The translations under genes and the position numbers were made by a program. Below are positions 10,147-35,562 of a stretch of DNA of 64,000 bases, piece by piece. The stretch is from NCBI GenBank assembly GCA_963674755.2, contig CAXXVS010000002.1, forward strand, positions 896,001 to 960,000, read 5' to 3'. Below the pieces are notes generated by a model that saw only the letters and a program-made list of their open reading frames with translations, was not told the DNA's origin and did not search any database. The first letter of the stretch is position 1; every line of letters begins with the position of its first letter. Source of the stretch: Desulfobacterales bacterium. Its GTDB lineage: Bacteria; Desulfobacterota; Desulfobacteria; Desulfobacterales; UBA5852.

Positions 10147-10292
10147 GGAGGGGGCAAGACCCGATGTCTTGCCCCCGACGAAAGGAGTTGGAATGGAATC
10201 CGTTGACGGCAATCGAGGGATCGTGAACTTCAAAAGCGCTCAGGGTTGATAGGCCAGGTCTGTAGGCGGTCGATCCCTGATTGCCACTTGAC
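10147..10292 (-). ncRNA. Candidate sigma54-dependent small RNA (about 145 nt; may extend to the terminator at 10054)
   Basis: Starts 12 nt after a sigma54 -12 box; 15-bp stem GGCAATC-AGGGATCG/CGATCCCT-C-GATTGCC; C/U-rich linker TTCCATTCCAACTCCTTTC; 11-bp GC hairpin at 10150-10176; no plausible ORF on this strand. Confidence 0.62.
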
Positions 10293-10303
10293 GCGGATTA
10301 ATA

Positions 10304-10318
10304 GCAATCCCTGTGCCA
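10304..10318 (-). promoter_or_regulatory. sigma54 (-24/-12) promoter
   Basis: TGGCACAGGGATTGC matches TGGCAC-N5-TTGC. Confidence 0.85.
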
Positions 10319-10390
10319 GAACGCCCCTCGACGATTTAGGCTAAAATAACAGTAGGATGGAATTTTTCAGATAATTGGATCAATACCTGT

Positions 10391-10428
10391 TTGACAGGAT
10401 CTGTCAGTCGCAATGCCGTAAATTGTCA
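10391..10428. promoter_or_regulatory. Tandem upstream activator site for a sigma54 enhancer-binding protein
   Basis: TTGACAGGATCTGTCAG-tcgca-ATGCCGTaaattGTCA; closely similar site at 35525-35562 at the same distance from its promoter. Confidence 0.72.
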
Positions 10429-10570
10429 GGCCACACGATGAGAAAACCCCGCTTGGGAGCCTTATCGGAGAGATGAGGGGTGAAACAACCCACCCAAAAT
10501 AAAGACGGCTCTATTAGGGAAGTGTAGGGCGTTTGGGTGAGGAGGGCGCCATCATCGCTATATTTCAGTC

Positions 10571-10599
10571 AAAAAAGGGCGGAGCTTTCGCTCCGCCCT
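10571..10599 (-). terminator. Intrinsic terminator (minus strand) with no upstream ORF
   Basis: AGGGCGGAGC-GAAA-GCTCCGCCCT-TTTTT. Confidence 0.8.
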
Positions 10600-10859
10600 G
10601 CGAGGAAGGTTATAAGGAATGCCACCAATACCGGCGACACCCGTATTGATGATAAGGACGGCGGTGCAAATGTTCAAGGGGTTTCGGCAATCCATGCTGA
10701 GCAGAGGCCTTTTCCCTATCCCTTATGTGTCAAGGCAGATACCGGACCTTCGGAATGTATTAACGCCCCACGTCCGAATGTTGTCTTAGAACTCCCTCCC
10801 TTTATACGGACACTCGATTAAAAAGTTCTTGACAAGATGCCCCATTTTTTTTACGTGTT

Positions 10860-10898
10860 TGTCACACATAGCGAATATTTGTAACGCAATGTGTGACA
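10860..10898. promoter_or_regulatory. Inverted repeat, probable IclR operator, just downstream of TTGACA (10829)
   Basis: TGTCACACAT-N19-ATGTGTGACA upstream of the iclR-like gene. Confidence 0.55.
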
Positions 10899-10976
10899 CA
10901 TGTATGACCTATACTTTCCCTGTATACGACAATAGCGATTACACACGGATCTTTTTGCTTAAGGCGAGGGCACGCG

Positions 10977-11771
10977 ATGCCATCCAAAGGGAAAAAATAC
11001 TATGTCATTTCTTCGCTGGGAAAAGGTTTGCGGGTGTTGGAACTGCTGGCCGAACACGGCGAATTGGGTGTTTCGGCCGTGGCCGCCCATTTGGATACAA
11101 ATCGGGCCGGCTGCCATCGGTTTCTATTGAGTTTGAGAGACTTGGGTTATGTGGAGAAAACGGAGGAAGGGCGCTATAGGCTGACCTTTAAAGTCCTTGA
11201 ACTCGGCATGAAGAAGCTCGAACGTTTTGAAATACGACATACGGCCCATCCCATGATGCAGGAGCTTTCCCGCGCCTTCCGTGAGACCGTCAATCTGGGT
11301 TTCTGGGACGGGCACGCCATCGTTCATCTGGACAAAATCAATAGCACTGAAATTCTTCGCATGGATTCAGGGTTGGGCACCCTGGCACCGGCCTATTGCA
11401 CCGGGTTGGGCAAGGCGATTCTGGCATTTTTGCCGGAGGATGAAGTCGATATCTATCTTCAGACGATCGAGTTCGAACGACTAACACCGAATACCATCCA
11501 TTCGGCGGACACCTTCAAGAAAGCCCTTTACAGGATTCGTGAGAGAGGCTTTGCCGTTGACAACGAAGAACTCAGCATCGGATTGCGCTGCATTGGAGCT
11601 CCGGTTTTTGACTACACCGGAAGGGCTAGTTTTGCGCTCAGCATCTCCGGGCCTACGCACCGAATGTCGGACGAGCGCGTAGAGGCAATGTCCGAAATCC
11701 TACAAAGCGTCTGCCAGCGCTTGTCACAAAAAATCGGCAGCCCAGGCCAACAGGCCCCGGGTTTTGCCTAA
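10977..11771 (+). CDS. IclR-family transcriptional regulator
   Basis: SLGKGLRVLE HTH; ETVNLG, YCTGLGKAILA, GFAVDNEE..GLRCIGAPV. Confidence 0.93.
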   Translation: MPSKGKKYYVISSLGKGLRVLELLAEHGELGVSAVAAHLDTNRAGCHRFLLSLRDLGYVEKTEEGRYRLTFKVLELGMKKLERFEIRHTAHPMMQELSRAFRETVNLGFWDGHAIVHLDKINSTEILRMDSGLGTLAPAYCTGLGKAILAFLPEDEVDIYLQTIEFERLTPNTIHSADTFKKALYRIRERGFAVDNEELSIGLRCIGAPVFDYTGRASFALSISGPTHRMSDERVEAMSEILQSVCQRLSQKIGSPGQQAPGFA

Positions 11772-11791
11772 ACAGGGAGGAATCGAAACTC

Positions 11792-12634
11792 ATGGGGAAA
11801 AAACATACGCGGTTTGACTTGCAGAAGATGAAGGACGAGCGCCAACGGGCCGTATGGGTCACGGCCTATGACTATTGGACAGCCAGCTTTGCCGAACAGG
11901 CTGGGATGGACATGATTCTGGTGGGGGATTCCCTCGGGATGTGCATCTACGGTTACAGTGGAACGGTCCCGGTCACCATGGACCAGTGCATTTATCACAG
12001 CGAAGCGGTTCGCCGGGGAGCGTCCAACACGTTTGTGATCGGCGACATGCCTTTTCTCTCCTACCAGGTGAGCGTTCCGGAAGCGGTGCGCAACGCCGGC
12101 CGCTTTCACAAGGAAGCCGGGGTGGACGCCATCAAGCTTGAGGGCGGACAACGCGTCATTGGGCAGATCCGCGCCATTGCCGACGGCGGCATGCTGGTCA
12201 TGGGCCACATCGGACTGACCCCCCAGAGTTCGGGCATGCAGGGAGGCTTTAAAGCCCAAGGACGCACGGCCGAAGCCGCTAGGGACCTTATCGAAGACGC
12301 CGTGGCCATCGAGGCGGCGGGTGCCTTCGCCCTTTTGGTGGAGGCGGTACCGCCGGAAGTCTGCGGCATCATCCGTGACAAGTTGACGATTCCCGTCTAC
12401 AGCATCGGCGCCGGTTGGGAAGCGGACGGGCAGCTCATGATCTGCAGTGATGTGCTGGGCATATTCCAGGCCTTCACCCCCAAGTTCGTCAAGAAATACG
12501 AAAACCTGGGGAAAAAGACGGTCGAAGCCTTCCAGCAATACGTCCAAGATGCCCGTAGCGGCGAATTTCCCAAGGAAGAACATGCCTACAAGATGGTGAC
12601 GGGTGAGTTGGAGAAATTGAAACAAATGCTTTAA
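11792..12634 (+). CDS. panB: 3-methyl-2-oxobutanoate hydroxymethyltransferase (PanB) homolog
   Basis: TAYDY, ILVGDSLG, DMPFLSY, IKLEGG, MGHIGLTPQ, IGAG, DGQ. Confidence 0.88.
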   Translation: MGKKHTRFDLQKMKDERQRAVWVTAYDYWTASFAEQAGMDMILVGDSLGMCIYGYSGTVPVTMDQCIYHSEAVRRGASNTFVIGDMPFLSYQVSVPEAVRNAGRFHKEAGVDAIKLEGGQRVIGQIRAIADGGMLVMGHIGLTPQSSGMQGGFKAQGRTAEAARDLIEDAVAIEAAGAFALLVEAVPPEVCGIIRDKLTIPVYSIGAGWEADGQLMICSDVLGIFQAFTPKFVKKYENLGKKTVEAFQQYVQDARSGEFPKEEHAYKMVTGELEKLKQML

Positions 12635-12868
12635 CCGAAGGGGAAAGGTTAACATAGAAGGGCAACAAACGAAGATTTAGGATTTCGATAAAAACACCAG
12701 GATTACGGCATGCGGCCGTGATTAGAGAATTCAACAACAACGGTATGCATCGGCATACATTGAAAAACACATCAGCGTGTTCGCTCCCGAAATAAGGATT
12801 TTTGGTTTTGACAGGAAGGTCAGGAGCAGAAAAGCCATTTCCGGAGGGGCACATTACCGGAGGTCTTT

Positions 12869-13813
12869 ATGTCAGCAGTGCTTAAAACGATTCGTGATTT
12901 CATGGAAAAAGAAGGTATCCCCGGACGGGACGCCTATGATCTGCCCACATCGACCAAGTCCTTCCCGGACGGCGCCAGTTTCCGCATCGAAATCGCCGGC
13001 GTGGAGCGTGCCTCGACCATGGAGGCCATGATCGACGAGGCGCGCAAACGCAATGTGACTATTCACCGCTGCATCGCCGCGGTGGGCGGATCCACCTACT
13101 GCGATTTCGAGGAGCTCAAAGCCATGGCCCAGATGGCGCGCGACGAGAAGATCGAGATGATCATGACCGTTGGCCACCGCAAGGGCTGGGACGCGGGCTC
13201 CAAGGAGATCTCCACGGCGGAAGGCGCCATGCAGGGCTTTCGGCTGCGCGGATCGGACAACATCTCCTATCACATCGCTGACATCATGCGGAACATCGAC
13301 GCCGGCCATCGCGGTTTCCTGGTTTACGATGAAGGGGTGCTCTACATCCTGAACAAGATGCGGGCCGAGGGACTGATTCCGGCTGAGACCATCTTCAAGT
13401 TTTCGGTTTTTGGCGGGTACTGCAGCGCGGCCGGCGCCAAAGTGATCGAGTCCATGGGGGCCAACTCCATGAACCCCATCTCCGATGTGTCCCTGCCGAT
13501 TCTGGGCTCAATCCGGAAAGCCGCCGACCTGCCGCTGGATGTTTATCTCATCATCGTGGACTCATTCGGCGGCATGTTCCGGGCCTATGAAGCGCCCGAA
13601 ATCGCCCGGGTGGCCGCCCCCTGCTACTTCAAGTTCGAGCCGGGAACCTCGGAAGGCGACATCTACAAACCGTGGATTACCGAAGCCTTTCACGGCAACC
13701 TCATCCGCGAAAAAGTCAAGATTGCCTCCATCGTTATGGAGATCATGCAGAAGCACGCCCCGGATTTAAAGACTTCCGCAAAAGGGCCGGCGGACCTTGT
13801 TTTACCGCGATGA
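12869..13813 (+). CDS. Uncharacterised U32-peptidase-like TIM-barrel protein
   Basis: 314-aa ORF with RBS GGAGG; LPTSTKSFPDGASFRIEI N-terminus recalls proteins annotated as U32-like; function unknown. Confidence 0.55.
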   Translation: MSAVLKTIRDFMEKEGIPGRDAYDLPTSTKSFPDGASFRIEIAGVERASTMEAMIDEARKRNVTIHRCIAAVGGSTYCDFEELKAMAQMARDEKIEMIMTVGHRKGWDAGSKEISTAEGAMQGFRLRGSDNISYHIADIMRNIDAGHRGFLVYDEGVLYILNKMRAEGLIPAETIFKFSVFGGYCSAAGAKVIESMGANSMNPISDVSLPILGSIRKAADLPLDVYLIIVDSFGGMFRAYEAPEIARVAAPCYFKFEPGTSEGDIYKPWITEAFHGNLIREKVKIASIVMEIMQKHAPDLKTSAKGPADLVLPR

Positions 13814-13928
13814 CCGGAGCCAGCGGCTGATGGTTGAAGGTGCCATGCGATCCTGAGGACCGCGATCGTTACCCTTCGCCCTGCCCAAGAGGGAAAAAGA
13901 TACCGAATAGACCGTAAGGACAGCCCCT

Positions 13929-15104
13929 ATGACAACGATCGATAAACTAGCTCGACGCACCCACCAAGTGGAGTGGTCGGGAATTCGCATCATGTTCGCT
14001 ATGGCCGAACAAATCCCGGATGTCGTCAATCTGGGGATCGGTCAGCCCGACTTCGATACGCCGGCATTTATTCGCGAGGCCGCGAAAAAGGCTTTGGACG
14101 AGGGGTTTACCCGCTATCCGCCCGCCAAGGGCTTTGCGGATCTGCGCAAGGCCATCGCCCAAAAGCTCGCGGTCGAAAACGGCATCACGGCCGACCCCAA
14201 CGCCGAAATCTTCGTGGCCGTAGGGGCTATGCAGGTCATTTTCAACACCTGTCTGCACTTGCTCAACCCGGGCGATGAGGTGATCGTCATAGATCCAGGC
14301 TACGACTACTATTCCCAGATCCGGTTGTTCGGCGGGGTGCCTGTGCCGGTCAAGGTCTACGAGTCCAACCAGTTCAAGGTGGATCCGGCCGACATCGAGG
14401 CGGCCATCACCGAGAAGACCAAACTGATGATCATTAACACGCCCTCCAATCCCACCGGGGCACTCTTCGACGAAGAGATCCTCAAGACGATAGCCGACAT
14501 GGCCCAAGCCCGCGACATCTGGGTACTTTCGGACGAACCATACGAGCATATCCTTTTTGACGGGCACAACCATGTCAGCATCGGCGCTTTCGAGGGCATG
14601 GCCGAGCGCACCATTTCGGCCTTCACCCTTTCCAAATCCTATGCCATGACCGGCTGGCGGGTAGGCTACGCAGCCGCGCCTAAGGTGATCGTCGACGAGA
14701 TGGAAAAATTGATGGAGCATATGGTCTCCGGCGTGGCGGCCATGGCCCAGCGGGCTGCCTTGGCCGCCATCACTGCTCCCCAGGATTGCGTGCAGGAGAT
14801 GGTGGCCACCTACGACCAGCGGCGACAGCTCGTCTACGATGGACTCAACGCCATCGACGGCATCCGCTGCCTCAAGCCGGAATCGACCTTCTACGCTTTC
14901 CCGAACATCAAGGCCACCGGGCTCTCCTCCTGGGAATTTGCCAAATACCTGGTGCAAGAACACCGGGTGGCGGTGGTGCCGGGAAGCATTTTCGGTGAGG
15001 GTGGCGAAGGATACGTGCGCTTTTCCTTTGCCGCCGGAATGAATCAGCTCAAGGAGGGCATTGCCCGTATCGAGAGAGGGGTGGCAGGTTTGAAACGCCC
15101 ATGA
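13929..15104 (+). CDS. Class I/II PLP-dependent aminotransferase
   Basis: NLGIGQPDF, NTPSNPTG, SDEPYE, SKSYAMTGWRVG. Confidence 0.92.
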   Translation: MTTIDKLARRTHQVEWSGIRIMFAMAEQIPDVVNLGIGQPDFDTPAFIREAAKKALDEGFTRYPPAKGFADLRKAIAQKLAVENGITADPNAEIFVAVGAMQVIFNTCLHLLNPGDEVIVIDPGYDYYSQIRLFGGVPVPVKVYESNQFKVDPADIEAAITEKTKLMIINTPSNPTGALFDEEILKTIADMAQARDIWVLSDEPYEHILFDGHNHVSIGAFEGMAERTISAFTLSKSYAMTGWRVGYAAAPKVIVDEMEKLMEHMVSGVAAMAQRAALAAITAPQDCVQEMVATYDQRRQLVYDGLNAIDGIRCLKPESTFYAFPNIKATGLSSWEFAKYLVQEHRVAVVPGSIFGEGGEGYVRFSFAAGMNQLKEGIARIERGVAGLKRP

Positions 15105-15149
15105 TCCGGAAACGCCTGTCCGGGCCTTTTTCTGAAGAGAGGAACGATC

Positions 15150-16322
15150 ATGCCGTTATTTCCCAAAGAAGAATATCTTGAACGGCTGCGCAAAACCAAG
15201 ACGCGCATGAGCGCGGCCGGCATCGATGTGCTGGTGGTGTCCGATCCGGCCAACATGAACTACCTAACCGGCTATGACGGTTGGTCCTTTTATGTGCCCC
15301 AGTGCGTGGTGGTCGGACTGGATGCCGATCTTCCCCTGTGGATCGGGCGGGGGATGGACGTGGCCGGCGCCCGTCACACCACTTTTTTACCCGAAGGCAA
15401 CATTGTCGGGTATCCGGACCATTACGTGCAGACCCTGGAGCGCCATCCCCTCAACTTTGTGGGGGATCGGATCAGGGATCGCGGCTGGGGAAACAAAACC
15501 GTGGGCGTGGAAATGGATGCCTATTATTTTTCAGCCCGCTCCTACGCCGAACTCCAGAAGCATCTACCCGACGCCCAATTCGCCAATGCCGACCTTTTGG
15601 TGAACTGGATTCGGTTGGTCAAGTCCGACGGAGAGATCGCCCTGATGAAAGAGGCCGGCAAGATTGCCGAGCGAGTTATGCAGACCGCCATCGACCGGCT
15701 TGAGCCGGGCGTGCGGGAGTGCGATGCCGTGGCTGCCGTCTACCAGGCCCAGATGTCCGGCACGCCGGATTTCGGAGGCGATTACCCCGCCATTGTCCCT
15801 ATGATGCCAACCGGCGAGAAGACATCGGCGCCGCACCTGACCTGGACCGACGCTCCCTACCAGAGCGAACAGATGGTCAACCTGGAACTGGCGGCCTGCC
15901 GCCATCGGTATCATTGCCCCATAGCTCGAACCGCTTATCTGGGGAAAAACCCGCCGGCCAAACTGGTGGAATTGGCCAATCACACCGTGGAAGGACTTGA
16001 CATCACGCTGGGGGCCATCAAACCGGGAATGCGGGCCGAGGAGGTGGAGCTGGTATGGCGCAACCATATCGCCAAGGCCGGTCTCGAGAAGGAATCCCGC
16101 ATCGGCTACGCCATGGGGCTGAACTACCCACCGGATTGGGGGGAGCACACCGCCAGTCTGCGCCCGGGGGATCAGACCGTGCTGGCGCCCAACATGACCT
16201 TTCATATGATTCTGGGCATGTGGATGGACGACTACGGATTCGAGTGCAGCGAGTCGCTGCGGCTGACGGAGACGGGCTGTGAAACCTTTGCCGACTTTCC
16301 GCGCAAGCTGTTTGTCAAATGA
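15150..16322 (+). CDS. eutD: Ectoine hydrolase EutD/DoeA-like (M24 fold), paralog 1
   Basis: DPANMNYLTGYDGWSFY, GGDYPAIVP, APHLTW, GLNYPPDWGEHTASLRPGD. Confidence 0.82.
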   Translation: MPLFPKEEYLERLRKTKTRMSAAGIDVLVVSDPANMNYLTGYDGWSFYVPQCVVVGLDADLPLWIGRGMDVAGARHTTFLPEGNIVGYPDHYVQTLERHPLNFVGDRIRDRGWGNKTVGVEMDAYYFSARSYAELQKHLPDAQFANADLLVNWIRLVKSDGEIALMKEAGKIAERVMQTAIDRLEPGVRECDAVAAVYQAQMSGTPDFGGDYPAIVPMMPTGEKTSAPHLTWTDAPYQSEQMVNLELAACRHRYHCPIARTAYLGKNPPAKLVELANHTVEGLDITLGAIKPGMRAEEVELVWRNHIAKAGLEKESRIGYAMGLNYPPDWGEHTASLRPGDQTVLAPNMTFHMILGMWMDDYGFECSESLRLTETGCETFADFPRKLFVK

Positions 16323-16378
16323 GGCGCGAGAAAAACGGTACCGGACGGAAAGAAACTTAAACCGAGAGGCTATGCACA

Positions 16379-17110
16379 TTGATTTACCGCACACGCCAAG
16401 GACAAGTGAGCAGCGGGGAGGCCATCGGCATCCTTTTGCTCGACACGGCGGTACCTTTCATCCCGGGGGATGTGGCCAATGCCACAACGTATAACTTTCC
16501 GGTGCGATTTAGGAAGGTAGAGGGATTCTCGGTAGCGCGGGCCATTGGCAAGGATCCCACGATATACGAGGTTCTCAAGGCGGCAGCCGAGGAACTGGTC
16601 GAACAGGGCGTGCGGGCCGTGACCGGGGATTGCGGATTTATGGCGTTGCACCAGGCACGCCTGGCGGATGAATTGGGGGTTCCCGTATTTTTGTCGAGCC
16701 TGCTGCAGATTCCGTTCATACTGAATATCCTCGGGAAAAGGGCCAAAGTTGGCGTGATTACGGCCGACAGCCGCAGTCTGGATGCCGGCCTTCTGGCGGT
16801 GGTGGGTGTCGGCGAGCCTGACCGCTTGGTCATCGAAGGACTGGAGGACCGCGAGGCCTTCTTCCGGTTCGCCATCGAGGAGACCGGTCTGCTCGATGCG
16901 GCGGAGGTGAAAGCCGAGGTGATCGAGGCCGGCCGACATATCGTGGCGCGCGATGATGCCGTGGGGGCGTTCCTGCTGGAGTGCAGTCTCTTGCCCCCCT
17001 ATGCCGCCGCCCTGCAGGAAAGGCTTCAAATGCCCGTGTTCGACTATATCACCATGATCAACCATGTTTTTTCAGCCGTCGTCCAACGACCTTACAACGG
17101 CTATCTCTAA
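16379..17110 (+). CDS. Asp/Glu/hydantoin racemase-family protein
   Basis: PGDVANATTY, GDCGF, LLECS (two-Cys pattern); TTG start with RBS GAGAGG. Confidence 0.78.
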   Translation: MIYRTRQGQVSSGEAIGILLLDTAVPFIPGDVANATTYNFPVRFRKVEGFSVARAIGKDPTIYEVLKAAAEELVEQGVRAVTGDCGFMALHQARLADELGVPVFLSSLLQIPFILNILGKRAKVGVITADSRSLDAGLLAVVGVGEPDRLVIEGLEDREAFFRFAIEETGLLDAAEVKAEVIEAGRHIVARDDAVGAFLLECSLLPPYAAALQERLQMPVFDYITMINHVFSAVVQRPYNGYL

Positions 17111-17151
17111 ACAAAAAGGGGCGCTGGATACCGAAGGAGACCGGTTACACA

Positions 17152-26629: not shown

Positions 26630-26631
26630 TC

Positions 26632-27453: not shown

Positions 27454-27582
27454 TGTCGTGCCGCCTGTGTCTATATCGGCAGGCGGCATCGGTGCCGTCA
27501 TGTTCAACCATGCCTAATTGTGTTACGATTGATCTGATGCGACCTGACAAAAATTCCTATGAGCGGGAGTGGCGCTGTCCTT

Positions 27583-28755
27583 ATGCCTGAACATGCCTGG
27601 ATCATAACCCCGGGAGCCTATGAGGATGTCGATCTGGCCGCCCTCGGGATTAACGCCCGCCCCAAGCGCGTTATGGCTTACGCCCTGTCCGATATCGGAC
27701 GCTATCTGCTTTCTCCCGCGCCCATCGAAATTGAAAGCCGCCTGCTGGGATGCGAATGTTGCTTCAAACCAGGGATTTGGCGAAGAGTGAAGTCGGCTGC
27801 AGTGGGTCTGATAAACCGCAAACCCCCTACGGAATCCATAGGCCATCCCGACACGGAGGATCGGCGTCTCCTGCTCGCCCGCCATTTCATGCGGATGCCT
27901 GCCTTGCGGGACCGCCAGCTGGCACGCCATATTGATCGTATACGCGGCCTGCTGCATCCTCTCGACCCTGTGGCCCGTGAAATCGCCACGACCCCTCTCC
28001 AGCGGTTGGCGGATATCCGTGGGGTGTGCGAAGACGAGGGCGGTCATCGCACCTATATCAACCTGAGCGGTGATCTGGAAGCCAAGCGGGGATATGTTCT
28101 CGACCATTTGCTCAAGCGCGTACCCATAACCCTGACACAAGCCCGCATTGCCGACCGTCTTTACGACTTGCGAGGGCTCGACCCGGCGCGCTATCGCTCT
28201 GAACGGCAGCACCGCCTTCTTAGATTCCAGACAAATGGACGTTTTTTCATATGTCTGCTGAGCCGGACCAATAAAGTGTCGTTTTGGGTCGATGATGCCG
28301 ACCGCCTTCGTCAACTGCTGCTGATCCAGCAGGCCCTCGAAACCGATCCTGTTCTGAACAAGGCCTTCGATGAGTGCTTTGAGGGAAGAGCCCGCGCTTT
28401 GCGGCTAATGATCAATCCCGAGATGGATATCGACTACTCCCGCAATCGCCTGCCCAAGGTCTATGAGACCCTATTTGCGTCACTGGAACTGGATGGTGCC
28501 CAGCAGCAAGGTGTGATTCACTCCCTGAACGCCCAGCAGATGGCCATCTCGTTCAGCTTTGTCCCCCAAGACCTGGGAGATTCCCGGGCGATGACCTGCA
28601 TATCGGTCCTGCATGATGTCAAAGCGCTGGAGACTTTTCGGCAGGCCGTGCCGGAACTCTATGCGGAAATCAACCGCAAGGCCACCCTGTCGGAAGCCGG
28701 TAGATACTATTTGTTGGAGTCGATTGAGGGGCATCCTGATGAAGAGGGCTTATAA
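27583..28755 (+). CDS. Hypothetical protein (about 390 aa), translationally coupled to the Lon-like gene
   Basis: Long ORF (alternative start 27559) overlapping the next gene by 17 nt; no motif recognised. Confidence 0.7.
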   Translation: MPEHAWIITPGAYEDVDLAALGINARPKRVMAYALSDIGRYLLSPAPIEIESRLLGCECCFKPGIWRRVKSAAVGLINRKPPTESIGHPDTEDRRLLLARHFMRMPALRDRQLARHIDRIRGLLHPLDPVAREIATTPLQRLADIRGVCEDEGGHRTYINLSGDLEAKRGYVLDHLLKRVPITLTQARIADRLYDLRGLDPARYRSERQHRLLRFQTNGRFFICLLSRTNKVSFWVDDADRLRQLLLIQQALETDPVLNKAFDECFEGRARALRLMINPEMDIDYSRNRLPKVYETLFASLELDGAQQQGVIHSLNAQQMAISFSFVPQDLGDSRAMTCISVLHDVKALETFRQAVPELYAEINRKATLSEAGRYYLLESIEGHPDEEGL

Positions 28756-31027
28756 CGCCAACGACTATGCCTGGATCAAGGAATTGCTTCAGTACCCGCT
28801 TATCCTGAAAGAGCGGCTTGGTCATTTCGAGGATACATCCGAAATCCGGGTGCCGGATGACCCCATCGAGCAGGTTATTTTCCAGGATCGCGCCAAAAAA
28901 ACCATCCGCAAAATCGCGCATAAACGCGGACACATCCTTATGGTGGGCCGCCCGGGAACCGGCAAATCCATGCTAGCCGGCATGCTGCAGGACGTTCTCA
29001 CCCAATCGCTCCATGATTATATCCGGCCGCATGATTCGATTTTGGCCTATCCCGGCAAAGATCGCAACCATATCCGAATCGCCTATGAAGACCCCGCGGC
29101 AGCAGATCGACTGATCGAAGATTTGCAGGCGAGATTGGAATCCATCGCTTCCCGCGAAGCCTCATTTTCTTTGGCGGAGCAGATCGATGCGGTACGTCGC
29201 ATCAAAATCGCGCTTCTGCTGGCGACCTTCCTGCTGGGGGTCGGGAGCTGGTATTTGCCGCTCCTGCTGGCGGTGGCCGGCATCACCGGCATTGGGAGCA
29301 TTTTTCTTTTCCTCCAGGAGAACAACCACAGGGCCCAGGAAAAAATCCAGCAGAACCAGCAGCAGGGCACCCCGCCCAATATCAGACCGATATTCGACAT
29401 GCTGCCGGTGGTGCTCTACGACCCTCGTCAGAATCTAAGCCTGCTGGCCCGCATTGCCGAGCCGAATGCCCGCGTCATGAAAGGCGGATTTCGCCACGAC
29501 CCCTATCAGTCCGGTAATTTGCAGACCCCGCCCCACAAACGGGCCTATCTGGGGGCCCATGCCACAGCGCCCATTATTTACATTGATGAACTACGCACCC
29601 TGCTGCGCATCGGCTATATGCCGGAGCTGTTGGAAATCATGCAGGAAAAGCAGTACATCCTTGAAGGCGGCGGGTCGACGGGCAGCGGTGCGGCGGATCG
29701 CTCCGAGAATCCTTTGAAGGCCGACAACATCATCGTAGCCTGCTGCAACCATGATACCATCCAGCACCTGCGATCCGAGGGCGACGGCGCTTTCCTCAGC
29801 CGCATCGAGGACAAGGGGGAGATCGTCTACATGGAGAGTGCGGTCGCCGAGACGCCGGAAACCGTTGTTCAGGCGGCCCAATATGTCAAACAGGAGGTTG
29901 ACCATATTGCGGACGAATTCGCGTCCGCCTGGGGAGAAGTCCTCGCCAAGGAAGGCATGGAAAGCGTGCGGCAACGCTGCGAGACCATTTTCGGACGACG
30001 TCTGTCGCCGGGCTTCAGCTTGACGACCAGGGAATTTTCCCGGGATGCGGTCATGGAAATCATAAAAGAGATGCGCTGCCGGGCATCCGACCGCAAACTG
30101 ACCAGCATTTTGCGTCCCATCAACGGGATTATCAAAGGGGCGGTGTTCGAGGCCATTTTCAGCGATTCTCCAAGAGTGGAACCCCACCATGTCCAGATTG
30201 CTTTGCAGGAGCATCTCAGTTTGGAAGGGGCCATGCAGAGGGATATCGCTTCCCATAAGAAAGACCTGAAGAAATATATCGATTCTATTACCGACTCGAT
30301 CGGCTACGTGGTGGGTTTGGCCGTGATTGCTTCGGCCGCGTCCGGCCAAATGCACGGCCAGCCCCTCCCGATCCACGGCCAGGTGGATGCGGGCGGCGCC
30401 GACCGGGTGGTCGCCGCCGGGAAAATTGGTGAAATCGCCCTGGCCGCCGCCCAGAACGTGCGGGCTTCCATCCGACGGATCCTCAAAAAAATCGGTGCGC
30501 CGCATGTGGGCTATGAAATGCATATCGAATACATCCAAGCCCATGGCGGTGTGGAAGGGGACAGCGCCTCCGCCGCCATCGACGTGGCGCTGATATCGGA
30601 TTTTATCCGTCAACCGGTCAACGCCAAATTTGCCGTCACCGGGTCATTGACAGGCGACATCATTCTGGCGGTGGGCGGGGTTACTGAAAAACTGAGATCG
30701 ATCATGGACCCTGTTTTAGGCATGTCCGGTGCCTGCGTTCCCTGGCAGAACAAGCACGACATTGAACCCTTGCTGATCAACAAGACCGCAGAATTCTTGC
30801 TCCAAGATGAGATTCCCGGCATACGCATCTATCGCAAGGCCCACCGCCAGGCACCCTTTGACGTCTATTTCTGCAAGACTAAATGGCATGTCTATCTCAT
30901 CATGATGGCCATCGACCGGGATCAAGTCGAACGCCGGATGGCCGACCGCTGCCGACGCGATACGGATTTGATCAAACGCTCCGACCGATCGTGGCGTCGA
31001 TCGTCGACATCGTTGGAAACGCGATGA
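28739..31027 (+). CDS. LonB-type (archaeal-like) AAA+ serine protease with a transmembrane insertion
   Basis: DQVI-like EQVIFQD, Walker A GRPGTGKS, hydrophobic hairpin IALLLATFLLGVGSWYLPLLLAVAGITGIGSIFLFL, Walker B IYIDE, HIEYIQAHGGVEGDSAS and GGVTEK Ser-Lys dyad. Confidence 0.85.
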   Translation: MKRAYNANDYAWIKELLQYPLILKERLGHFEDTSEIRVPDDPIEQVIFQDRAKKTIRKIAHKRGHILMVGRPGTGKSMLAGMLQDVLTQSLHDYIRPHDSILAYPGKDRNHIRIAYEDPAAADRLIEDLQARLESIASREASFSLAEQIDAVRRIKIALLLATFLLGVGSWYLPLLLAVAGITGIGSIFLFLQENNHRAQEKIQQNQQQGTPPNIRPIFDMLPVVLYDPRQNLSLLARIAEPNARVMKGGFRHDPYQSGNLQTPPHKRAYLGAHATAPIIYIDELRTLLRIGYMPELLEIMQEKQYILEGGGSTGSGAADRSENPLKADNIIVACCNHDTIQHLRSEGDGAFLSRIEDKGEIVYMESAVAETPETVVQAAQYVKQEVDHIADEFASAWGEVLAKEGMESVRQRCETIFGRRLSPGFSLTTREFSRDAVMEIIKEMRCRASDRKLTSILRPINGIIKGAVFEAIFSDSPRVEPHHVQIALQEHLSLEGAMQRDIASHKKDLKKYIDSITDSIGYVVGLAVIASAASGQMHGQPLPIHGQVDAGGADRVVAAGKIGEIALAAAQNVRASIRRILKKIGAPHVGYEMHIEYIQAHGGVEGDSASAAIDVALISDFIRQPVNAKFAVTGSLTGDIILAVGGVTEKLRSIMDPVLGMSGACVPWQNKHDIEPLLINKTAEFLLQDEIPGIRIYRKAHRQAPFDVYFCKTKWHVYLIMMAIDRDQVERRMADRCRRDTDLIKRSDRSWRRSSTSLETR

Positions 31028-31057
31028 TAAAACATCCCCTATGAGGTCAAATTGCCC

Positions 31058-31084
31058 TCAAGTTGCCGTGAATTCAGGCGATAA
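31058..31084 (+). promoter_or_regulatory. sigma28 promoter upstream of the HDOD gene
   Basis: TCAAGTTG-N11-GGCGATAA. Confidence 0.7.
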
Positions 31085-31274
31085 CCCCTATACAATCTAT
31101 TTTTTTGCAGTGTTCTTAGGACACGCGTTTGATCTTCGTGTTCAGCAATGCCAAGCGCTGTTGCATTACAGAACCGTTTTTTTGCCCTGTAAATGTAAGG
31201 GACCGCCGGCCGATCAGATCCAAACCGCTATGGTCGTGAAAACGCGCTAACCTTTATCAGGAAGAGTATGAATC

Positions 31275-32390
31275 ATGAAATTTGAGTGCCCCAGCTGCCG
31301 GAATAGCTACAATGTGCCTGATGAAAAGCTTCCCCCGAAGAAAATGGTCGTGTTCCCTTGTCCGAAATGCAAAGGTAAAATCGAGCTTAACCTGGAGACG
31401 GCCCGGAAGAATTCCCTTCCGCCCGAATCCCATACGACCGAAACCGCTCAAGATGTCGTGGCGGCAGAGGCGGGCCCGCCCAATAACACTCCGCTGATCG
31501 GCAACAACGGGGATTTTCGAAAAAAGGTCCTGCGCAAGCTCAAAGATCTGCCCCCCATGCCGCAGATTGTTTTCAAGGCCCGGCAGGTCATTGCCGACCC
31601 GGATTCCGAAATGGCCGAGCTGGCGGACCTGCTGGAATCTGATCAGGCGATTGCCACTAAAGTTCTCAAACTGGCCAACAGCGCCTATTATGGCCTGAGC
31701 GGAAAAGTCTCCTCTATCCGACATGCATCCAGCCTGCTGGGGTATAAGGCGCTGGGGCAGTTGATTTCTATGGTTGGCAGCGCGTCGGTTCTGGGAAAAA
31801 CCCTGGACGGATATGATCTGGATTCCGCCGGCGCCTGGCGGCATTCCTTGATGGCGGCGAGCGCTTCGCGCATCATCGCTCTCCGACGCCATCCGGGTCT
31901 GGAAGGCGACGCCTTTTCAGCCGGCCTAATCCATGACGTTGGCAAACTGGTCCTGGATAACTATGTCTTGGAGCGCAAAAGCGAATTCGAACGCATCACG
32001 GCGGGCGGCCGTCGATCCATGCTATCGGCTGAACAACATCTTCTTGGTCTGGACCATGCCGATATCGGATACGAGGTTTGTAAACATTGGAACATTCCGG
32101 AAACCATTTCGAAAGCGATTCGATTCCACCACAACCCATCTAATAGCGATCAGGATCCTTTATCATATATTGTTTTCATGGCTAATTCCATCGCCAATAT
32201 CGTCAAATCCATGGAAGAAACCGAAGGGACGATCGCCCAGTTGGAAGGCATCGAAGGCTTTATGTACATGATCGACGATGATGTCCTTGATTTCTTAGAT
32301 CTTCCTGAAGATGAGGTTCCCGCCATATTGACGGACGCTCGTGATGCCGTAAATAAGCTTTCCGAAGAGATGCAGATTTTAGCGAACTAG
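31275..32390 (+). CDS. Zinc-ribbon + HDOD domain protein
   Basis: CPSC...CPKC ribbon; LPPMP, VLKLANSAYY, WRHSL, AGLIHDVGKL, HADIG, IRFHH. Confidence 0.9.
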   Translation: MKFECPSCRNSYNVPDEKLPPKKMVVFPCPKCKGKIELNLETARKNSLPPESHTTETAQDVVAAEAGPPNNTPLIGNNGDFRKKVLRKLKDLPPMPQIVFKARQVIADPDSEMAELADLLESDQAIATKVLKLANSAYYGLSGKVSSIRHASSLLGYKALGQLISMVGSASVLGKTLDGYDLDSAGAWRHSLMAASASRIIALRRHPGLEGDAFSAGLIHDVGKLVLDNYVLERKSEFERITAGGRRSMLSAEQHLLGLDHADIGYEVCKHWNIPETISKAIRFHHNPSNSDQDPLSYIVFMANSIANIVKSMEETEGTIAQLEGIEGFMYMIDDDVLDFLDLPEDEVPAILTDARDAVNKLSEEMQILAN

Positions 32391-32435
32391 GCTTAAAATA
32401 GCTGGCCTGCCGCCTTTTAATCACCAATCCAACAA

Positions 32436-32468
32436 GCGCCCTGGTCCACTGTGACCACGGGCGTTTTT
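32436..32468 (+). terminator. Intrinsic terminator after the HDOD gene
   Basis: CGCCCTGGTC-loop-GACCACGGGCG-TTTTT. Confidence 0.6.
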
Positions 32469-32492
32469 ATTGGACCTGCCCGGACGAAAACA

Positions 32493-32519
32493 TCAAGTTT
32501 TTGTCCGTCGCGCCGATAA
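32493..32519 (+). promoter_or_regulatory. sigma28 promoter
   Basis: TCAAGTTT-N11-GCCGATAA (consensus -10). Confidence 0.8.
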
Positions 32520-32552
32520 AATTATTGTGGGTCGGCCAAATCATCTTACTGA

Positions 32553-32700
32553 GCGCCCGTCCAGCGATGATGGATCTTGGTTCCAGCCAAGGCCGCAGTG
32601 ATTCGGGAACCGACGGCGTAGTCGTGTGAGCGACAGCGTTGCGTAGCGGGGCTGGGGCGAAGACCGACAAAAGCCAAAGATGCCATTTGTGGATGGGCAC
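32553..32700. repeat. MITE/REP-like repeat, copy C
   Basis: GCGCCCGTCC...GGATGGGCAC ends; TTGGTTCCAGCCAAGGCCGCAGTGATT matches copy D with 2 mismatches. Confidence 0.78.
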
Positions 32701-32747
32701 TACCTAACAACCCGGGACGTTGGTCCGGACTGTGTTGAAGGAGCGCC

Positions 32748-33575
32748 ATGAACACACAGACCATTTTGCGAGGCGAGGGGGACGGCTTAACAACGACCGC
32801 CGAGGAAGACTTAGGATATTCGCCGGAAGAGCATTTTGATCGGGCCATAGCCGTCTGTTCGCGGCTGTTGTTGGGAGTGGGCAATCCCGGGCATGACCTG
32901 CAGGCGGCTCTGGCACAGCTTGCATTGGGTTTTGATGCGCGCCATGTGGTCTTGTTTCAGATCGAATCTTATCATACCGAAGATAACCGTGGGCGCAGGA
33001 TAGTCTGCTCCCAGGATGTTACCTGCCCTTATTGCAAAGATAGCCGAGATTGGGACTATATTGGTCTCATTGACAATGATATGCGCATGCGACTGGAGAG
33101 GGGACAAAGCTGCTCTCATGATGTTCGAAACCTCCCGCATCACTTGGCGCAGGGGTTTTATGAGCGCGACGTGGTACGACTGATAATGGTACCCCTGACC
33201 GTTCTAGGCAAATGGTGGGGGTTTTTATGCATCGAAGCATTGCAGGCCGACATAGAGAGGCTGCCGGTAGAGGAAAACCATCTTAAAACTGTGGGGGCTC
33301 TTTTTTCTGTATTCTATGAGCGGCAGCATGCCGTGGAAGGATTTCATGAACGCAAGGAGCTCTCCGGTGCTCTTGAAATGGCGGGAACGGTTTGTCACAA
33401 ATTAAATCAGCCCATGCAGGTGATCCTGGGCTATGCCAGCATGGTAACCTCCGGTGACATCAGCGAAAAGGAACAAATCATCGAAATCGTGCAGTTGATT
33501 GAAAATGAAACCCGGCAGATGGGCATCATCACGAAAAATCTAATGGGCATCACGAAAAATCGCGGCGCTGAATAG
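32748..33575 (+). CDS. GAF-domain protein with a C-terminal HisKA-like helix and no ATPase domain
   Basis: MVPLTVLGKWWGFL GAF pattern; AGTVCHKLNQPMQVILG H-box at the C-terminus. Confidence 0.72.
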   Translation: MNTQTILRGEGDGLTTTAEEDLGYSPEEHFDRAIAVCSRLLLGVGNPGHDLQAALAQLALGFDARHVVLFQIESYHTEDNRGRRIVCSQDVTCPYCKDSRDWDYIGLIDNDMRMRLERGQSCSHDVRNLPHHLAQGFYERDVVRLIMVPLTVLGKWWGFLCIEALQADIERLPVEENHLKTVGALFSVFYERQHAVEGFHERKELSGALEMAGTVCHKLNQPMQVILGYASMVTSGDISEKEQIIEIVQLIENETRQMGIITKNLMGITKNRGAE

Positions 33576-33591
33576 CGCCGCGATTTTTTTT
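33555..33591 (+). terminator. Intrinsic terminator overlapping the stop codon
   Basis: AAAAATCGCGGCGCT-gaat-AGCGCCGCGATTTTTTTT. Confidence 0.75.
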
Positions 33592-33618
33592 CACTAGGGA
33601 GGGCAAGAAGGGGTTTCC

Positions 33619-34653
33619 ATGCGGGTATCCATTTGCCGCGAAACACTGTCAACGGCTGAAGGAGGCCGATCAAATGCCAGCGTTGTGAACCTCAAGGCCG
33701 GGGGTCTGCTGCAAGCCAGAATTGTCGAAATAACGGCCTCCGGAAAAACCGTGTTCCAATTTGACGGTTTTCGGGCGGTGGCAGGAAGACGGGTGGAAGG
33801 ACAGATAGGTGATATTTGGCAGTTTGAAGTCCTTCGGGATATGAATGCGCAAAGCGACCGCTCGCAGCAACGACACAGCGCAGCAAATCCGGCACAACCA
33901 GTGGGTCGACCGCGAATCTCCAATGCGGTGTCGCAGAGCAGCATAAGCTTGCGATTGATACCGCTATCAGGAAAACATGACGCTTTCGAATCCTCCAAGA
34001 ATGCACCGGCAACATCGCTTCGAATGACCTTCTCCGGTGTGGCCATCCCTGTAACGCCGCCCGGTTTGAGCAGCCAGGTCTTGCAGCCCGTGCAGGTTCT
34101 ATGGACATGGCTTCAGCAGATGCGCGATGCTATGCCGTGGTCAGGTGAAATTGGGGCAAAGTCGACCCTGAAGCAGTGGAAGCTTCAAACGGAGGCCCGG
34201 GAAAAGGCATCGCCACAATTGCTGGATCACCCTGATCCAGCAGATTTGAAAAAGGTCGATCGCTCGGGAGAGCCCTGGCATCATATTATGTCAGGTGGCT
34301 TCCAGCTTGGCCAACGACGGATCAAGATGAACCTCTATAGGCGTTCTTCTGGGAGGGAAGCGAATGCCCCCCCCAACTTATTGAAAGCGGTTTTTCTTCT
34401 GGACCTTGAGAATGCCGGAGCAATGCGGGTGGATATCAAGATGGGGGCCGAGCACATTCAGGTGGGCATTTTCGTCAAGGATGAAGATACCCGCAGCCGA
34501 TTTTCAGCGGGATTGCCGGCGTTGACCAACGCTTTGTCAGCACTTAGCAAACAGTGTTATTGCCATGTGGCGGTGGACGCCTCCAAGATTCAGGAAGGTT
34601 ACGAAGAGCAACTCGTGATCCCGGAAGCAGTGCGGTTGAATATCCAGGCCTGA
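33619..34653 (+). CDS. FliK-like flagellar hook-length control domain protein
   Basis: Low-complexity middle; C-terminal FLLDLENAGAMRVDI...F...LPALTNAL; adjacent FlhB-like gene. Confidence 0.6.
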   Translation: MRVSICRETLSTAEGGRSNASVVNLKAGGLLQARIVEITASGKTVFQFDGFRAVAGRRVEGQIGDIWQFEVLRDMNAQSDRSQQRHSAANPAQPVGRPRISNAVSQSSISLRLIPLSGKHDAFESSKNAPATSLRMTFSGVAIPVTPPGLSSQVLQPVQVLWTWLQQMRDAMPWSGEIGAKSTLKQWKLQTEAREKASPQLLDHPDPADLKKVDRSGEPWHHIMSGGFQLGQRRIKMNLYRRSSGREANAPPNLLKAVFLLDLENAGAMRVDIKMGAEHIQVGIFVKDEDTRSRFSAGLPALTNALSALSKQCYCHVAVDASKIQEGYEEQLVIPEAVRLNIQA

Positions 34654-34658
34654 ACCCT

Positions 34659-34913
34659 ATGAAAAAAACACCCCGTCAAGCTGTGGCACTGCGCTACGAC
34701 CACCAAAAGGACCAGGCCCCCTGTGTCTTGGCCAAAGGATCCGGTTATATCGCGGAGAAAATCATCCAAGCAGCGCAACAATACGACATTCCTCTGGTGC
34801 AGGATCCGGTGGCCGAGGAATTGCTCAGCCAGGTGGAGCTGGGAAAGACGATTCCCCCTGAATTCTATCGAGCCGTAGCTGAAATACTGGCCTTCGTGTA
34901 TCGTTTGAAATGA
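34659..34913 (+). CDS. EscU/YscU/FlhB C-terminal-like (FlhX) protein
   Basis: AVALRYD..APCVLAKGSG.IAEKII..A...IP; AVAEILAFVY. Confidence 0.88.
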   Translation: MKKTPRQAVALRYDHQKDQAPCVLAKGSGYIAEKIIQAAQQYDIPLVQDPVAEELLSQVELGKTIPPEFYRAVAEILAFVYRLK

Positions 34914-35063
34914 CGAAACGGACGCAATTACCGCTCCGACCTGTTCAATCAGGGCTTTTCAAGCGCTTCAAATGAAAAGAACGGCATCCTGATACCCGGC
35001 CTTGGGCGAGATCTACCAAAGCATTTTTTCGGCCTGACGTGCCTGCCCGCAGGCGCATCCAGG

Positions 35064-35318
35064 TTATGCTGCGGAAGACGACCAGGCGCCCGCGACGCTG
35101 CTCACGACAAAAGGCTCGGCATCGTGAATGGCCGTCGAATAATGTTTGCATACCGGGCAGAATTTGCGGGGCATGCCGCGGCCGGTCCATAAAAGCTTAA
35201 CGCGGTGATGGGTTCCACACTTCGGGCAAACGCATTCCGTCGATGTCTCGCGCAAACAGACAGCCTGGATGGATTCAATTCTTTTTTCGTCGTCGCTCTT
35301 TCCCGTTTCCTCTCTCAT
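35064..35318 (-). CDS. Small zinc-ribbon protein (CPKC...CPVC)
   Basis: RBS GGAG 9 nt before ATG; ECVCPKCGTHH...WTGRG.PRKFCPVC; lies downstream of a sigma54 promoter. Confidence 0.7.
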   Translation of the reverse strand: MREETGKSDDEKRIESIQAVCLRETSTECVCPKCGTHHRVKLLWTGRGMPRKFCPVCKHYSTAIHDAEPFVVSSVAGAWSSSAA

Positions 35319-35340
35319 TGTCCGTTCTCCATTTAAGAAT

Positions 35341-35426
35341 TGGGATCGAGGGGTTGTGGGCGTGGATAACCGGTCAAAATCGTCAGGCAGTAGGATGTTC
35401 CGTTACCCCTGTGATTGCCATTGGTT
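35341..35426 (-). ncRNA. Structured leader RNA related to the candidate sRNA at 10147-10292
   Basis: TGGCAATCA at +7; AGGGGT/ACCCCT and ATC/GAT pairing over about 80 nt; shared CCTAC..CCTG, TTTTGA and CCCTCGAT. Confidence 0.55.
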
Positions 35427-35437
35427 AAACAATATAA

Positions 35438-35452
35438 GCAATTCTAATGCCA
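35438..35452 (-). promoter_or_regulatory. sigma54 (-24/-12) promoter
   Basis: TGGCATTAGAATTGC. Confidence 0.82.
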
Positions 35453-35524
35453 TATTATCTAAGTCTAATTTTCTACATAATACCGGACAGACACGGACGG
35501 GAGAAATCGAAAGACCCTATCGGC

Positions 35525-35562
35525 TTGACGGGATTTGTCAGGCTATATGCCGTTATACGTCA
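35525..35562. promoter_or_regulatory. Tandem upstream activator site (second copy)
   Basis: TTGACGGGATTTGTCAG-gctat-ATGCCGTtatacGTCA. Confidence 0.72.

Follow-up and report, generated by a model that had tools for sequence, protein, structure and literature searches.

Small RNAs (sRNAs) that are transcribed from sigma-54 promoters under the control of an enhancer-binding protein (EBP) are an established kind of regulator and have already been documented in sulfate reducers (PMC3333781, PMC4641369). The descriptions of the sigma-54 regulome of Desulfovibrio vulgaris report four noncoding RNAs with dedicated activators (PMC4641369, PMC3333781), and two sigma-54 sRNAs are described for D. alaskensis G20 (PMC4045070). 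Regulons of the response-regulator EBP PilR are described as extending past the pilin gene pilA to flagellar genes (PMC6058289), and the account of the Campylobacter jejuni sRNA CJnc230 mentions the anti-Shine-Dalgarno sequence (PMC11187230). Here, we analyzed a 64,000-nt stretch of a Desulfobacterales genome (the window, to which all plain coordinates refer) in which a cassette of enhancer, sigma-54 promoter, and RNA element occurs twice, at locus 1 and locus 2, both read on the minus strand. Our results make it probable that locus 1 is a stand-alone regulatory RNA driven by sigma-54 and an EBP and that locus 2 is a paralogous cassette that has become the leader of an mRNA, with a PilR-like protein as the best candidate for the activator.

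The genome that holds the window (G000; 6.7 Mb, with contigs that include C2 and C3) was compared with other genomes, numbered G001, G002, and so on. Its family was represented by 17 genomes: G000 itself, 12 others of its genus (g1), three of genus g3, and one of genus g2.

Two cassettes of identical geometry

A first, sequence-only reading of the window had claimed that the cassette is repeated with identical geometry, and both the coordinates and the spacing agree with that claim at the two loci. The enhancer consists at each locus of two sites of the TGAC-N7-GTCA type spaced 22 bp apart, the proximal site lies 88 bp from the promoter, and the enhancer-promoter geometry is thus the same. Both predicted RNAs begin (G/A)UGGCAAUCA, with UGGCAAUCA about 7 nt past the predicted start, where the earlier reading had also placed this word (+7). 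In a pairwise alignment of the two loci, the functional elements match and the spacers differ. The elements of the two cassettes are as follows.

10576-10599, minus strand: hairpin of a terminator with U tract, immediately before the enhancer of locus 1 (10 pairs, 8 of them GC; TTTTT tail)
10414-10428, minus strand: distal enhancer site of locus 1, TGACAATTTACGGCA, with one mismatch to TGAC-N7-GTCA
10392-10406, minus strand: proximal enhancer palindrome of locus 1, TGACAGATCCTGTCA
10341-10358, minus strand: putative bend site of locus 1 resembling that of integration host factor (IHF), CATCCTACTGTTATTTTAG, a consensus match only
10303-10318, minus strand: sigma-54 -24/-12 promoter of locus 1, TGGCACAGGGATTGCT, with a predicted start near 10292
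10278-10286, minus strand: RNA start word of locus 1, UGGCAAUCA (TGGCAATCA in the DNA reading)
35548-35562, minus strand: distal enhancer site of locus 2, TGACGTATAACGGCA
35526-35540, minus strand: proximal enhancer palindrome of locus 2, TGACAAATCCCGTCA
35437-35452, minus strand: sigma-54 promoter of locus 2, TGGCATTAGAATTGCT, with a predicted start near 35426
35412-35420, minus strand: RNA start word of locus 2, UGGCAAUCA (TGGCAATCA in the DNA reading)

Chance is excluded as the origin of both cassettes because the counts of the enhancer and promoter patterns exceed those expected or reached in shuffled sequence. The 17-nt enhancer core (up to two mismatches) occurs twice in the window against an expectation of 0.17, and the full 29-nt enhancer pattern (up to two mismatches) occurs only at these two loci across the 6.7-Mb genome, with no match for a reversed control. 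The promoter pattern TGGYAYN5TTGCW was found three times in the window (0.24 expected), a number reached in none of 100 shuffles; the third match, at 29744-29759, lies within a Lon-like open reading frame (ORF) and has no enhancer.

The same arrangement was seen in a census of 18 long-form copies of the RNA, in which up to one mismatch to the site definition TGAC-N7-GTCA was tolerated and positions were counted from the start of R1, a covariance model built from ten copies and used with a match cutoff of E up to 0.001. A sigma-54 match lies 26-31 nt before the model start in 17 of the 18 copies. All 18 have the proximal site, 88-89 bp upstream of the promoter and 114-121 nt before the model start, and 15 have the distal site exactly 22 bp above the proximal one, a spacing that would place two activator dimers on the same face of the helix. 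Between enhancer and promoter, 10 of the 18 copies carry a CTGT(T/A)AT or WATCWN5TTR word that fits an IHF bend site by consensus match only, so that we read it as a putative one. Upstream, the hairpin at 10576-10599 insulates the locus 1 cassette, and other copies have a comparable hairpin before the enhancer. In all, 11 genomes carry long forms. With a -24/-12 promoter and activator sites conserved in position, the predicted RNAs would belong to the class of EBP/sigma-54-dependent sRNAs.

Structure and family of the locus 1 RNA

The RNA predicted for locus 1 folds with a free energy of -58.2 kcal/mol (z -4.76), a stability reached in 0 of 200 shuffles, and is free of ORFs from promoter to terminator. 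Its parts are listed here.

10208-10285, minus strand: 5' stem-loop with outer helix P1 (10279-10285 with 10208-10214), inner helix P2 (10271-10277 with 10217-10223), and a loop of about 45 nt
10177-10207, minus strand: single-stranded CU-rich linker (GUCAACGGAUUCCAUUCCAACUCCUUUCGUC), the presumed seed, unpaired in the folds
10150-10176, minus strand: GC hairpin GGGGGCAAGAC-AUCGG-GUCUUGCCCCC, which has no U tract and was not called by the terminator scan
10052-10076, minus strand: canonical U-tract terminator 75 nt beyond the GC hairpin, possibly the true 3' end

The same architecture emerged from RNAalifold, run on a MAFFT alignment of the 18 long-form copies that had not been fitted to any structure. 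A 7-bp outer helix P1 (GGCAAUC/GAUUGCC), a small internal loop, and a 7-bp inner helix P2 (GGGAUCG/CGAUCCC) enclose a loop of about 45-60 nt with the recurrent words GCCUGAC, CCUGA(C/G)C, and CUUUUGA; an unpaired CU-rich linker of about 30 nt follows, and then the GC hairpin GGGGCAAGRC...GYCUUGCCCC. Covariation of the stems, predicted by the earlier reading, was found: 10 of the 24 pairs of P1, P2, and the hairpin are maintained through two-sided changes, and in the GC hairpin five pairs have compensatory changes. P1, for example, reads GGCGGUC/GACCGCC in a second copy in G000 (C2:1807211-1807360) and GGCAGUC/GACUGCC in the G004 orthologue. When 25 matches were instead aligned by fitting to the model, 5 of the 25 rows being short forms or noise, 96.8% of the cells were paired, against 88.8 +/- 0.6% in shuffled alignments and 32-52% with slid partners. 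The loop words that the earlier reading had proposed as common fared unequally: GCCUGAC, CCUGA, and CUUUUGA recur throughout the family, but CCTAC does not.

The linker holds a conserved CUCC core within CACC(C)UCCUU(U/A) and resembles the 3' end of the 16S rRNA of the same genome, GGAUCACCUCCUUUCU. As judged from this likeness, the conserved single-stranded C/U-rich stretch, which is complementary to GGAGG, would imitate the anti-Shine-Dalgarno tail of the ribosome.

On the 3' side of the hairpin at 10150-10176, the sequence is CUCCCCAAC instead of a run of U's. Among 13 copies inspected, 8, including locus 1, have another terminator, with a U tract, 85-100 nt past the hairpin and no ORF in the interval, and in 4 an ORF directly follows the RNA. 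The locus 1 RNA may accordingly be about 146 or about 235 nt long by prediction. At the loci L016, L023, L034, L033, L022, and L032, a semiconserved stretch of about 80 nt (CCUAACC..CAGGCGG..GGCAGGGAAG..UUGAUAC) separates the GC hairpin from the canonical terminator and may be a 3' domain of the RNA; a cobalamin riboswitch was suspected in its CAGGCGG..GGCAGGGAAG part and was dropped, as Rfam gave no match. The ORFs behind other copies gave no informative Pfam match. At L017/L025 and L024/L026, small ORFs come immediately after the RNA: in G001 and G002, one for a hydrophobic peptide of about 40 amino acids ending in LLML(I/F)PLIF, and in G011 and G009, one for a conserved protein of 126 amino acids that belongs to no Pfam family.

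A search of the Rfam collection, one of the checks proposed with the earlier reading, supports its suggestion of a new RNA family, since no model matches. Rfam 15, with families such as Qrr, CrcZ, and Pxr among those tested, returned only a tRNA for the window at the gathering threshold; at E up to 10, the top match for the two loci was an unrelated snoRNA model with 19.3 bits (gathering score, 45). On 13 loci with other copies, Rfam gave only two SAM riboswitch matches, in L023 at 2336-2561, off the copy at 1501-1652. Homologues were sought as well, and they proved to be genus-wide. BLASTN with locus 1 found them in 7 of the 12 other genus genomes, often in two or three copies each, and R1 matched 15 of the 17 family genomes (g1, 12/12; g3, 2/3; g2, 0/1), the matches in the sister genus being weak. 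All 13 genomes of the genus that were searched thus carry the family, with about two to seven R1 matches per genome if weak and opposite-strand ones are included. In an even sample of the order, 4 of 151 genomes had an R1 match; three of these belong to the genus, G000 among them, and the fourth, in G047 (E 2.8e-7), looked on inspection like a simple GATTACCGATCA repeat rather than a family member. When 185,579 species, each represented by one genome, were scanned for an exact pattern, 45 loci emerged. Seven of them are true members (58.9-150.4 bits with R1), all in records of metagenome-assembled genomes (MAGs) titled uncultured Desulfobacteraceae, Desulfobacterales, or "delta proteobacterium"; the other 38 score at most 22.5 bits and are random occurrences, which a pattern of this kind is expected to produce. 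A literature search on sigma-54 sRNAs of sulfate reducers, on PilR with sRNAs, and on small RNAs of Desulfobacterales found no paper on the family, though the D. vulgaris binding-site tables could hold a related motif. We conclude that the predicted RNAs form a multicopy sRNA family that is restricted to one Desulfobacterales genus and was previously undescribed.

About 700 bp separate the end of locus 1 from a tRNA gene (9335-9419, plus strand; RF00005, 60.3 bits). The region 10977-25393 (plus strand) contains an IclR regulator gene that diverges from locus 1 and, behind it, what is likely an amino acid or peptide catabolism island with an aminotransferase, M24 and M20 peptidases, two TRAP transporter sets, a pyridoxal phosphate enzyme, and RidA.

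Short form and related small RNAs

In addition to the long form, a short form was found that has no 5' stem-loop and consists of a sigma-54 promoter, about 25 nt, UUUUCUCCCUCCUCUU, a hairpin, and a U tract, a unit of about 75 nt from promoter to terminator. It is present behind a TGAC-N7/8-GTCA site in the four genomes inspected (G000, at C2:1719889; G001; G010; and G005).

Two further kinds of small RNA were noted. A short sigma-54 sRNA candidate in G000 (C3:503817, minus strand; L139) has the enhancer TGACACAAAAAGTCA, the promoter TGGCATGCTGTTTGCT, the seed UUUCCUCCUUAA, and a hairpin with a U tract, and is not matched by R1. The sister genus (G014 L027, G014 L041, and G016 L028) has seed-plus-hairpin sRNAs with CACCACCUCCCUCGCUUGGGGCAAGGC, for which the patterns used detected no sigma-54 promoter and no TGAC enhancer. 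The seed module may predate the sigma-54 cassette.

Locus 2 as the leader of a mini-protein gene

The predicted RNA of locus 2 runs into a gene for a small zinc-ribbon protein.

35345-35420, minus strand: leader remnant of the 5' stem-loop; inner helix 35405-35410 with 35349-35354, outer helix lost
35325-35330, minus strand: Shine-Dalgarno sequence GGAGAA upstream of the ORF
35064-35318, minus strand: ORF of 84 amino acids (ATG at 35318, stop at 35064) encoding a zinc ribbon with two CxxC pairs

A stem-loop of about 80 nt had been predicted at both loci. It holds at locus 1, with the z score given above, but at locus 2 pairing is confined to the inner helix, AGGGGU (35405-35410) with ACCCCU (35349-35354), and the GGCAAUC of GGCAAUC/GAUUGCC is left without its 3' partner; the fold of this leader has a z score of +0.14 and was equaled in stability by 108 of 200 shuffles. 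The claim that one copy is free and the other is an mRNA leader fared better, as the leader arrangement recurs: the sigma-54 promoter, enhancer, and stem-loop precede the zinc-ribbon gene at 7 of 20 loci, in six genomes (G000, G004, G001 twice, G008, G011, and G012). The gene itself is kept in 15 of the 17 family genomes, often in two or three copies, and 12 of the remaining 13 loci lie behind a weak PilZ-like gene and lack such a promoter. The 84-amino-acid protein has no Pfam or NCBIfam family, and the protein atlas places it only in unnamed clusters.

The leaders are graded in form. Those of G004 and G008 are the whole long-form RNA (P1, P2, and CU-rich stretch) running into the ORF, and in G000, G001, G011, and G012 the 3' arm of P1 and the CU-rich stretch are gone. 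Because of this gradation, with the whole RNA still present in G004 and G008, we read the leader form as the product of a fusion between an sRNA gene and a duplicated mini-protein gene. The earlier reading had taken the likeness of the two loci as a sign of selection on an RNA motif. The cassette and the stems are indeed kept, but shared ancestry explains much of the likeness, because the leader of G004 and G008 is the whole sRNA gene lacking its end.

In five genomes, G004 (C8), G010 (C15), G001 (C3), G013 (C194), and G014 (C1), the promoterless copy of the zinc-ribbon gene that follows the PilZ-like gene is 7-11 kb away from the gene for the PilR-like protein described below; this does not hold for G000. 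At the second zinc-ribbon gene, G003 and G001 share only 3 kb of synteny, with no adjoining pilR region. In the window, a motility cluster (25832-34913, plus strand) converges on locus 2; it comprises motA, motB, an ORF of 398 amino acids of unknown function, a Lon-like AAA protease, an HDOD/HD protein with a zinc ribbon, a HisKA fragment, a FliK-like protein, and a protein like the C terminus of FlhB.

The enhancer and its candidate activators

G000 has 69 genes for sigma-54 activators and 85 sigma-54-like promoters, 7 of which have a perfect TGAC-N7-GTCA site 40-140 bp upstream. These seven are the promoters of four RNA or leader loci, the short sRNA candidate, an operon of unknown function at C3:1695884, and a type IV pilin gene at C2:1217819, which lies directly downstream of the gene for P0003 (C2:1218188-1219612), a PilR-like response-regulator EBP. 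At this pilin gene, a sigma-54 promoter is accompanied by two perfect copies of TGACA-N5-TGTCA at a distance of 21 bp (L137/L140). Tandem pairs of such sites number six in the genome and were absent from five shuffled genomes, so that the wider regulon with a common enhancer that the earlier reading had suspected is borne out by seven promoters with a perfect site and six tandem pairs.

Downstream of the P0003 orthologues, the sigma-54 promoter and enhancer are kept in 9 of 11 genomes from three genera, six of the nine having two perfect sites 21 bp apart, and in the seven of the nine for which the stretch examined extends to the ORF, they precede the pilin gene. As a predicted phylogenetic footprint of the PilR type this is clear, and the RNA genes and pilA share the kind of site. 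Because the same enhancer type stands before the adjacent pilin gene, we tentatively regard the PilR-like protein, unproven as it is, as the best candidate for the activator of the RNA genes. Possibly some other activator is responsible; a role for the type of P0001 (C2:1805612-1807012), a different EBP that is 35% identical to P0003 and has a different helix-turn-helix (HTH), appears less likely. Adjacency was considered as an argument for P0001 and rejected, since the arrangement upstream of the second copy is confined to G000 and G004 and is not seen in G001, G010, or G008; no close protein of the P0001 type was found in G002, G003, or G011. Co-occurrence does not single out an activator either, as neither the PilR-like nor the P0001 type is present in all RNA-bearing genomes.

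The word GTGTGCATA stands just upstream of the pilin enhancer sites in G000 and G004, with a shorter GTGCATA in G010 and G006, and is also found in front of the short sRNA at C2:1719889. The rest of the tandem TGACA-N5-TGTCA pairs in G000 lie at C3:1695764-1699400 (L138), C3:653770, C3:715224, and C3:1885783; behind them are genes for an HTH_20 protein with a zinc-ribbon/HAMP protein and two phosphonate-type binding proteins, a gene for a CcdA/DsbD-like membrane protein, a gene for a secreted protein, and an AT-rich stretch.

Discussion

Our results suggest that the window contains two descendants of one sigma-54 sRNA gene, one still free and the other built into an mRNA. The sequence-only reading had recognized the stem-loop of this cassette but had missed the CU-rich stretch and the hairpin, which together are the likeliest active part, as well as the short form, the history of fusion, and the link to the pilin gene. 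Transcription would be initiated by sigma-54 RNA polymerase together with an EBP bound as two dimers to the palindromes about 110 and 88 bp above the -24 element, probably assisted by a bend introduced by IHF. The CU-rich stretch of the RNA would then pair with the ribosome-binding sites of target mRNAs and block their translation, and the 5' stem-loop may stabilize the RNA or confer specificity. We infer this action in trans because the linker mimics the anti-Shine-Dalgarno sequence and because the short form keeps that module alone; occlusion of ribosome-binding sites is known for other C/U-rich sRNAs. At locus 2, the promoter and inner stem-loop would drive the mRNA of the 84-amino-acid protein, so that the mini-protein and the sRNAs would answer one signal, and a PilR-like regulator would put the whole family in a pilus or surface-behavior regulon.

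Several observations weigh against this reading. Transcription, rpoN dependence, the mechanism in trans, and the identity of the activator are predictions made from sequence. The covariation reflects few independent events among close relatives and paralogues. The GC hairpin of most long forms has no U tract, which leaves their 3' end uncertain, and the four ORF-followed copies among the 13 inspected may be leaders rather than free sRNAs. A genome-wide duplex search over 33,360 crude start candidates (ORF guesses) gave no interpretable targets. With regard to the activator, G003, G008, and G009 (MAGs that are 90, 98, and 95% complete) yielded neither a PilR-like orthologue nor such an HTH, although the enhancers of their long-form copies are intact, and G012 (70% complete) gave the same negative result; the assemblies of G003 and G009 also contain no such pilin gene; the MAGs are incomplete (a range of 81-98% is given), so that neither the PilR-like nor the P0001 type is proven absent. 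In G000, moreover, a gap of 57 nt separates the end of the P0001 gene from the second copy's enhancer, and the gene is likewise placed in G004.

The rival that survives best, though we think it unlikely, is that the RNA acts mainly in cis, as a 5' leader of the riboswitch or attenuator type in which the stem-loop senses a protein or ligand, the CU-rich stretch and hairpin form the expression platform that governs read-through into, or translation of, any ORF behind it, and the free copies are decayed or orphaned. In its favor, the element stands before varied small ORFs (the zinc-ribbon gene at seven loci, the 126-amino-acid protein in G011 and G009, and the peptide of about 40 amino acids in G001 and G002); its hairpin mostly lacks a U tract, and the 3' arm CGACCCC of the short leaders can pair either with the 5' arm or with a Shine-Dalgarno sequence GGGGG and the start codon. 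A leader switch based on this choice of partners was rejected, however, as the alternative pairing shows no covariation (0 of 22 pairs across five sequences) and the covariation term of RNAalifold is positive, i.e., unfavorable. The ORF-free run to a canonical terminator in 8 of 13 copies, locus 1 included, and the short form as a complete promoter-to-terminator unit also argue against a cis role, and the downstream ORFs are mutually unrelated, which fits the capture of ORFs by a promoter and sRNA better than a dedicated sensor.

It is very unlikely that the free RNA of locus 1 sequesters a protein or ligand that binds the stem-loop and thereby sets expression from the locus 2 leader, as the sequence-only reading had proposed; we found nothing that speaks for such titration. 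Common to the two RNAs, which would be made together from like promoters, are the inner helix, the loop words GCCUGAC and UUUUGA, and the 5' arm UGGCAAUCA, but descent from a whole sRNA gene accounts for the resemblance, and intermediate forms are seen in G004 and G008. The outer helix is absent from locus 2 and from the leaders of G001, G011, and G012, and the most conserved functional-looking part of the RNA, the CU-rich stretch, is not in the leader of the window. No conserved protein-binding motif was found; GGA motifs in loops, the CsrA consensus, for example, are not conserved across the family alignments as judged by eye. That only the promoter cassette is functional and the transcribed likeness a neutral remnant of recent duplication is hardly credible, for although paralogues within a genome share the whole unit of about 290 nt and the P1 sequence is nearly invariant in most copies, enhancer, promoter, and RNA are conserved and only the spacers separating them have diverged, the stems stay paired through compensatory changes, and the family persists in every genome of the genus that was searched.

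If our preferred reading of a free sRNA and a derived leader is taken further, we speculate, with little conviction, that a PilR-type system uses a battery of paralogous anti-Shine-Dalgarno-mimicking RNAs together with a coregulated zinc-ribbon mini-protein to throttle or reprogram the translation of strongly initiating mRNAs upon a surface or pilus signal, for example, to alternate between pili and the flagellar genes flanking locus 2, and that the sRNA gene is at the same time a mobile unit of sigma-54 "promoter plus leader" by which small ORFs are captured.

The family provides a well-defined, covariation-supported RNA for a phylum whose sRNA biology is almost unmapped and a concrete regulon, comprising sRNAs, a mini-protein, a pilin gene, and a few more operons, for one of 69 sigma-54 activators. 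It also displays an sRNA gene at several stages of becoming an mRNA leader. If the link to PilR is true, this would be the first sRNA arm of a PilR regulon, as far as the literature was searched. Given the narrow range of the family and the known class of mechanism, we regard the result as a useful annotation and a testable lead rather than a surprise.

Comparison with known systems

The noncoding RNAs of Desulfovibrio (DVU0679/Dv_sRNA2 and DVU2359/ncRNA) are described in a similar setting, that of sulfate reducers with many EBPs in which a sigma-54 sRNA has a dedicated activator site, and the D. vulgaris sRNA is reported to lie just downstream of the activator gene DVU0679 (PMC3333781), as the second copy in G000 lies behind P0001. 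Desulfovibrio belongs to a different order and, going by these descriptions, has single genes, whereas the family reported here is multicopy with long, short, and leader forms.

The Vibrio Qrr1-5 sRNAs are likewise encoded by paralogous genes with their own sigma-54 promoters and sites for a response-regulator EBP, and have a common single-stranded seed (PMC3730234, 10.1101/2021.07.01.450815). Qrr1-5 depend on LuxO; our family belongs to another phylum, has another enhancer motif, and bears no likeness in sequence or structure (no Rfam match at E up to 10). Unlike in Qrr, the seed mimics the anti-Shine-Dalgarno sequence and one cassette is fused to an ORF.

CJnc230 of C. jejuni is described as an RpoN-dependent sRNA of the motility regulon that acts on the translation of motility regulators (PMC11187230), a likeness to the role proposed here. 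It differs from the present RNAs in being unrelated in sequence, single copy, and without this type of upstream enhancer. CJnc230 is reportedly processed from the 3' end of an mRNA.

In the PilS-PilR/pilA systems of Pseudomonas, Geobacter, and Myxococcus, as here, a response-regulator EBP gene is described as adjoining a sigma-54 pilin gene with activator sites (PMC6058289). The enhancer in our genomes is TGACA-N5-TGTCA, present twice, versus TGT-N11-AGA plus GTCT as given for Pseudomonas aeruginosa (PMC6058289), and, in contrast to those systems, there is no pilS beside the PilR-like gene. A literature search on PilR together with sRNAs turned up no PilR-dependent sRNA. What sets the present family apart from these systems is its occurrence in long, short, and leader forms and the enhancer that it has in common with pilA.

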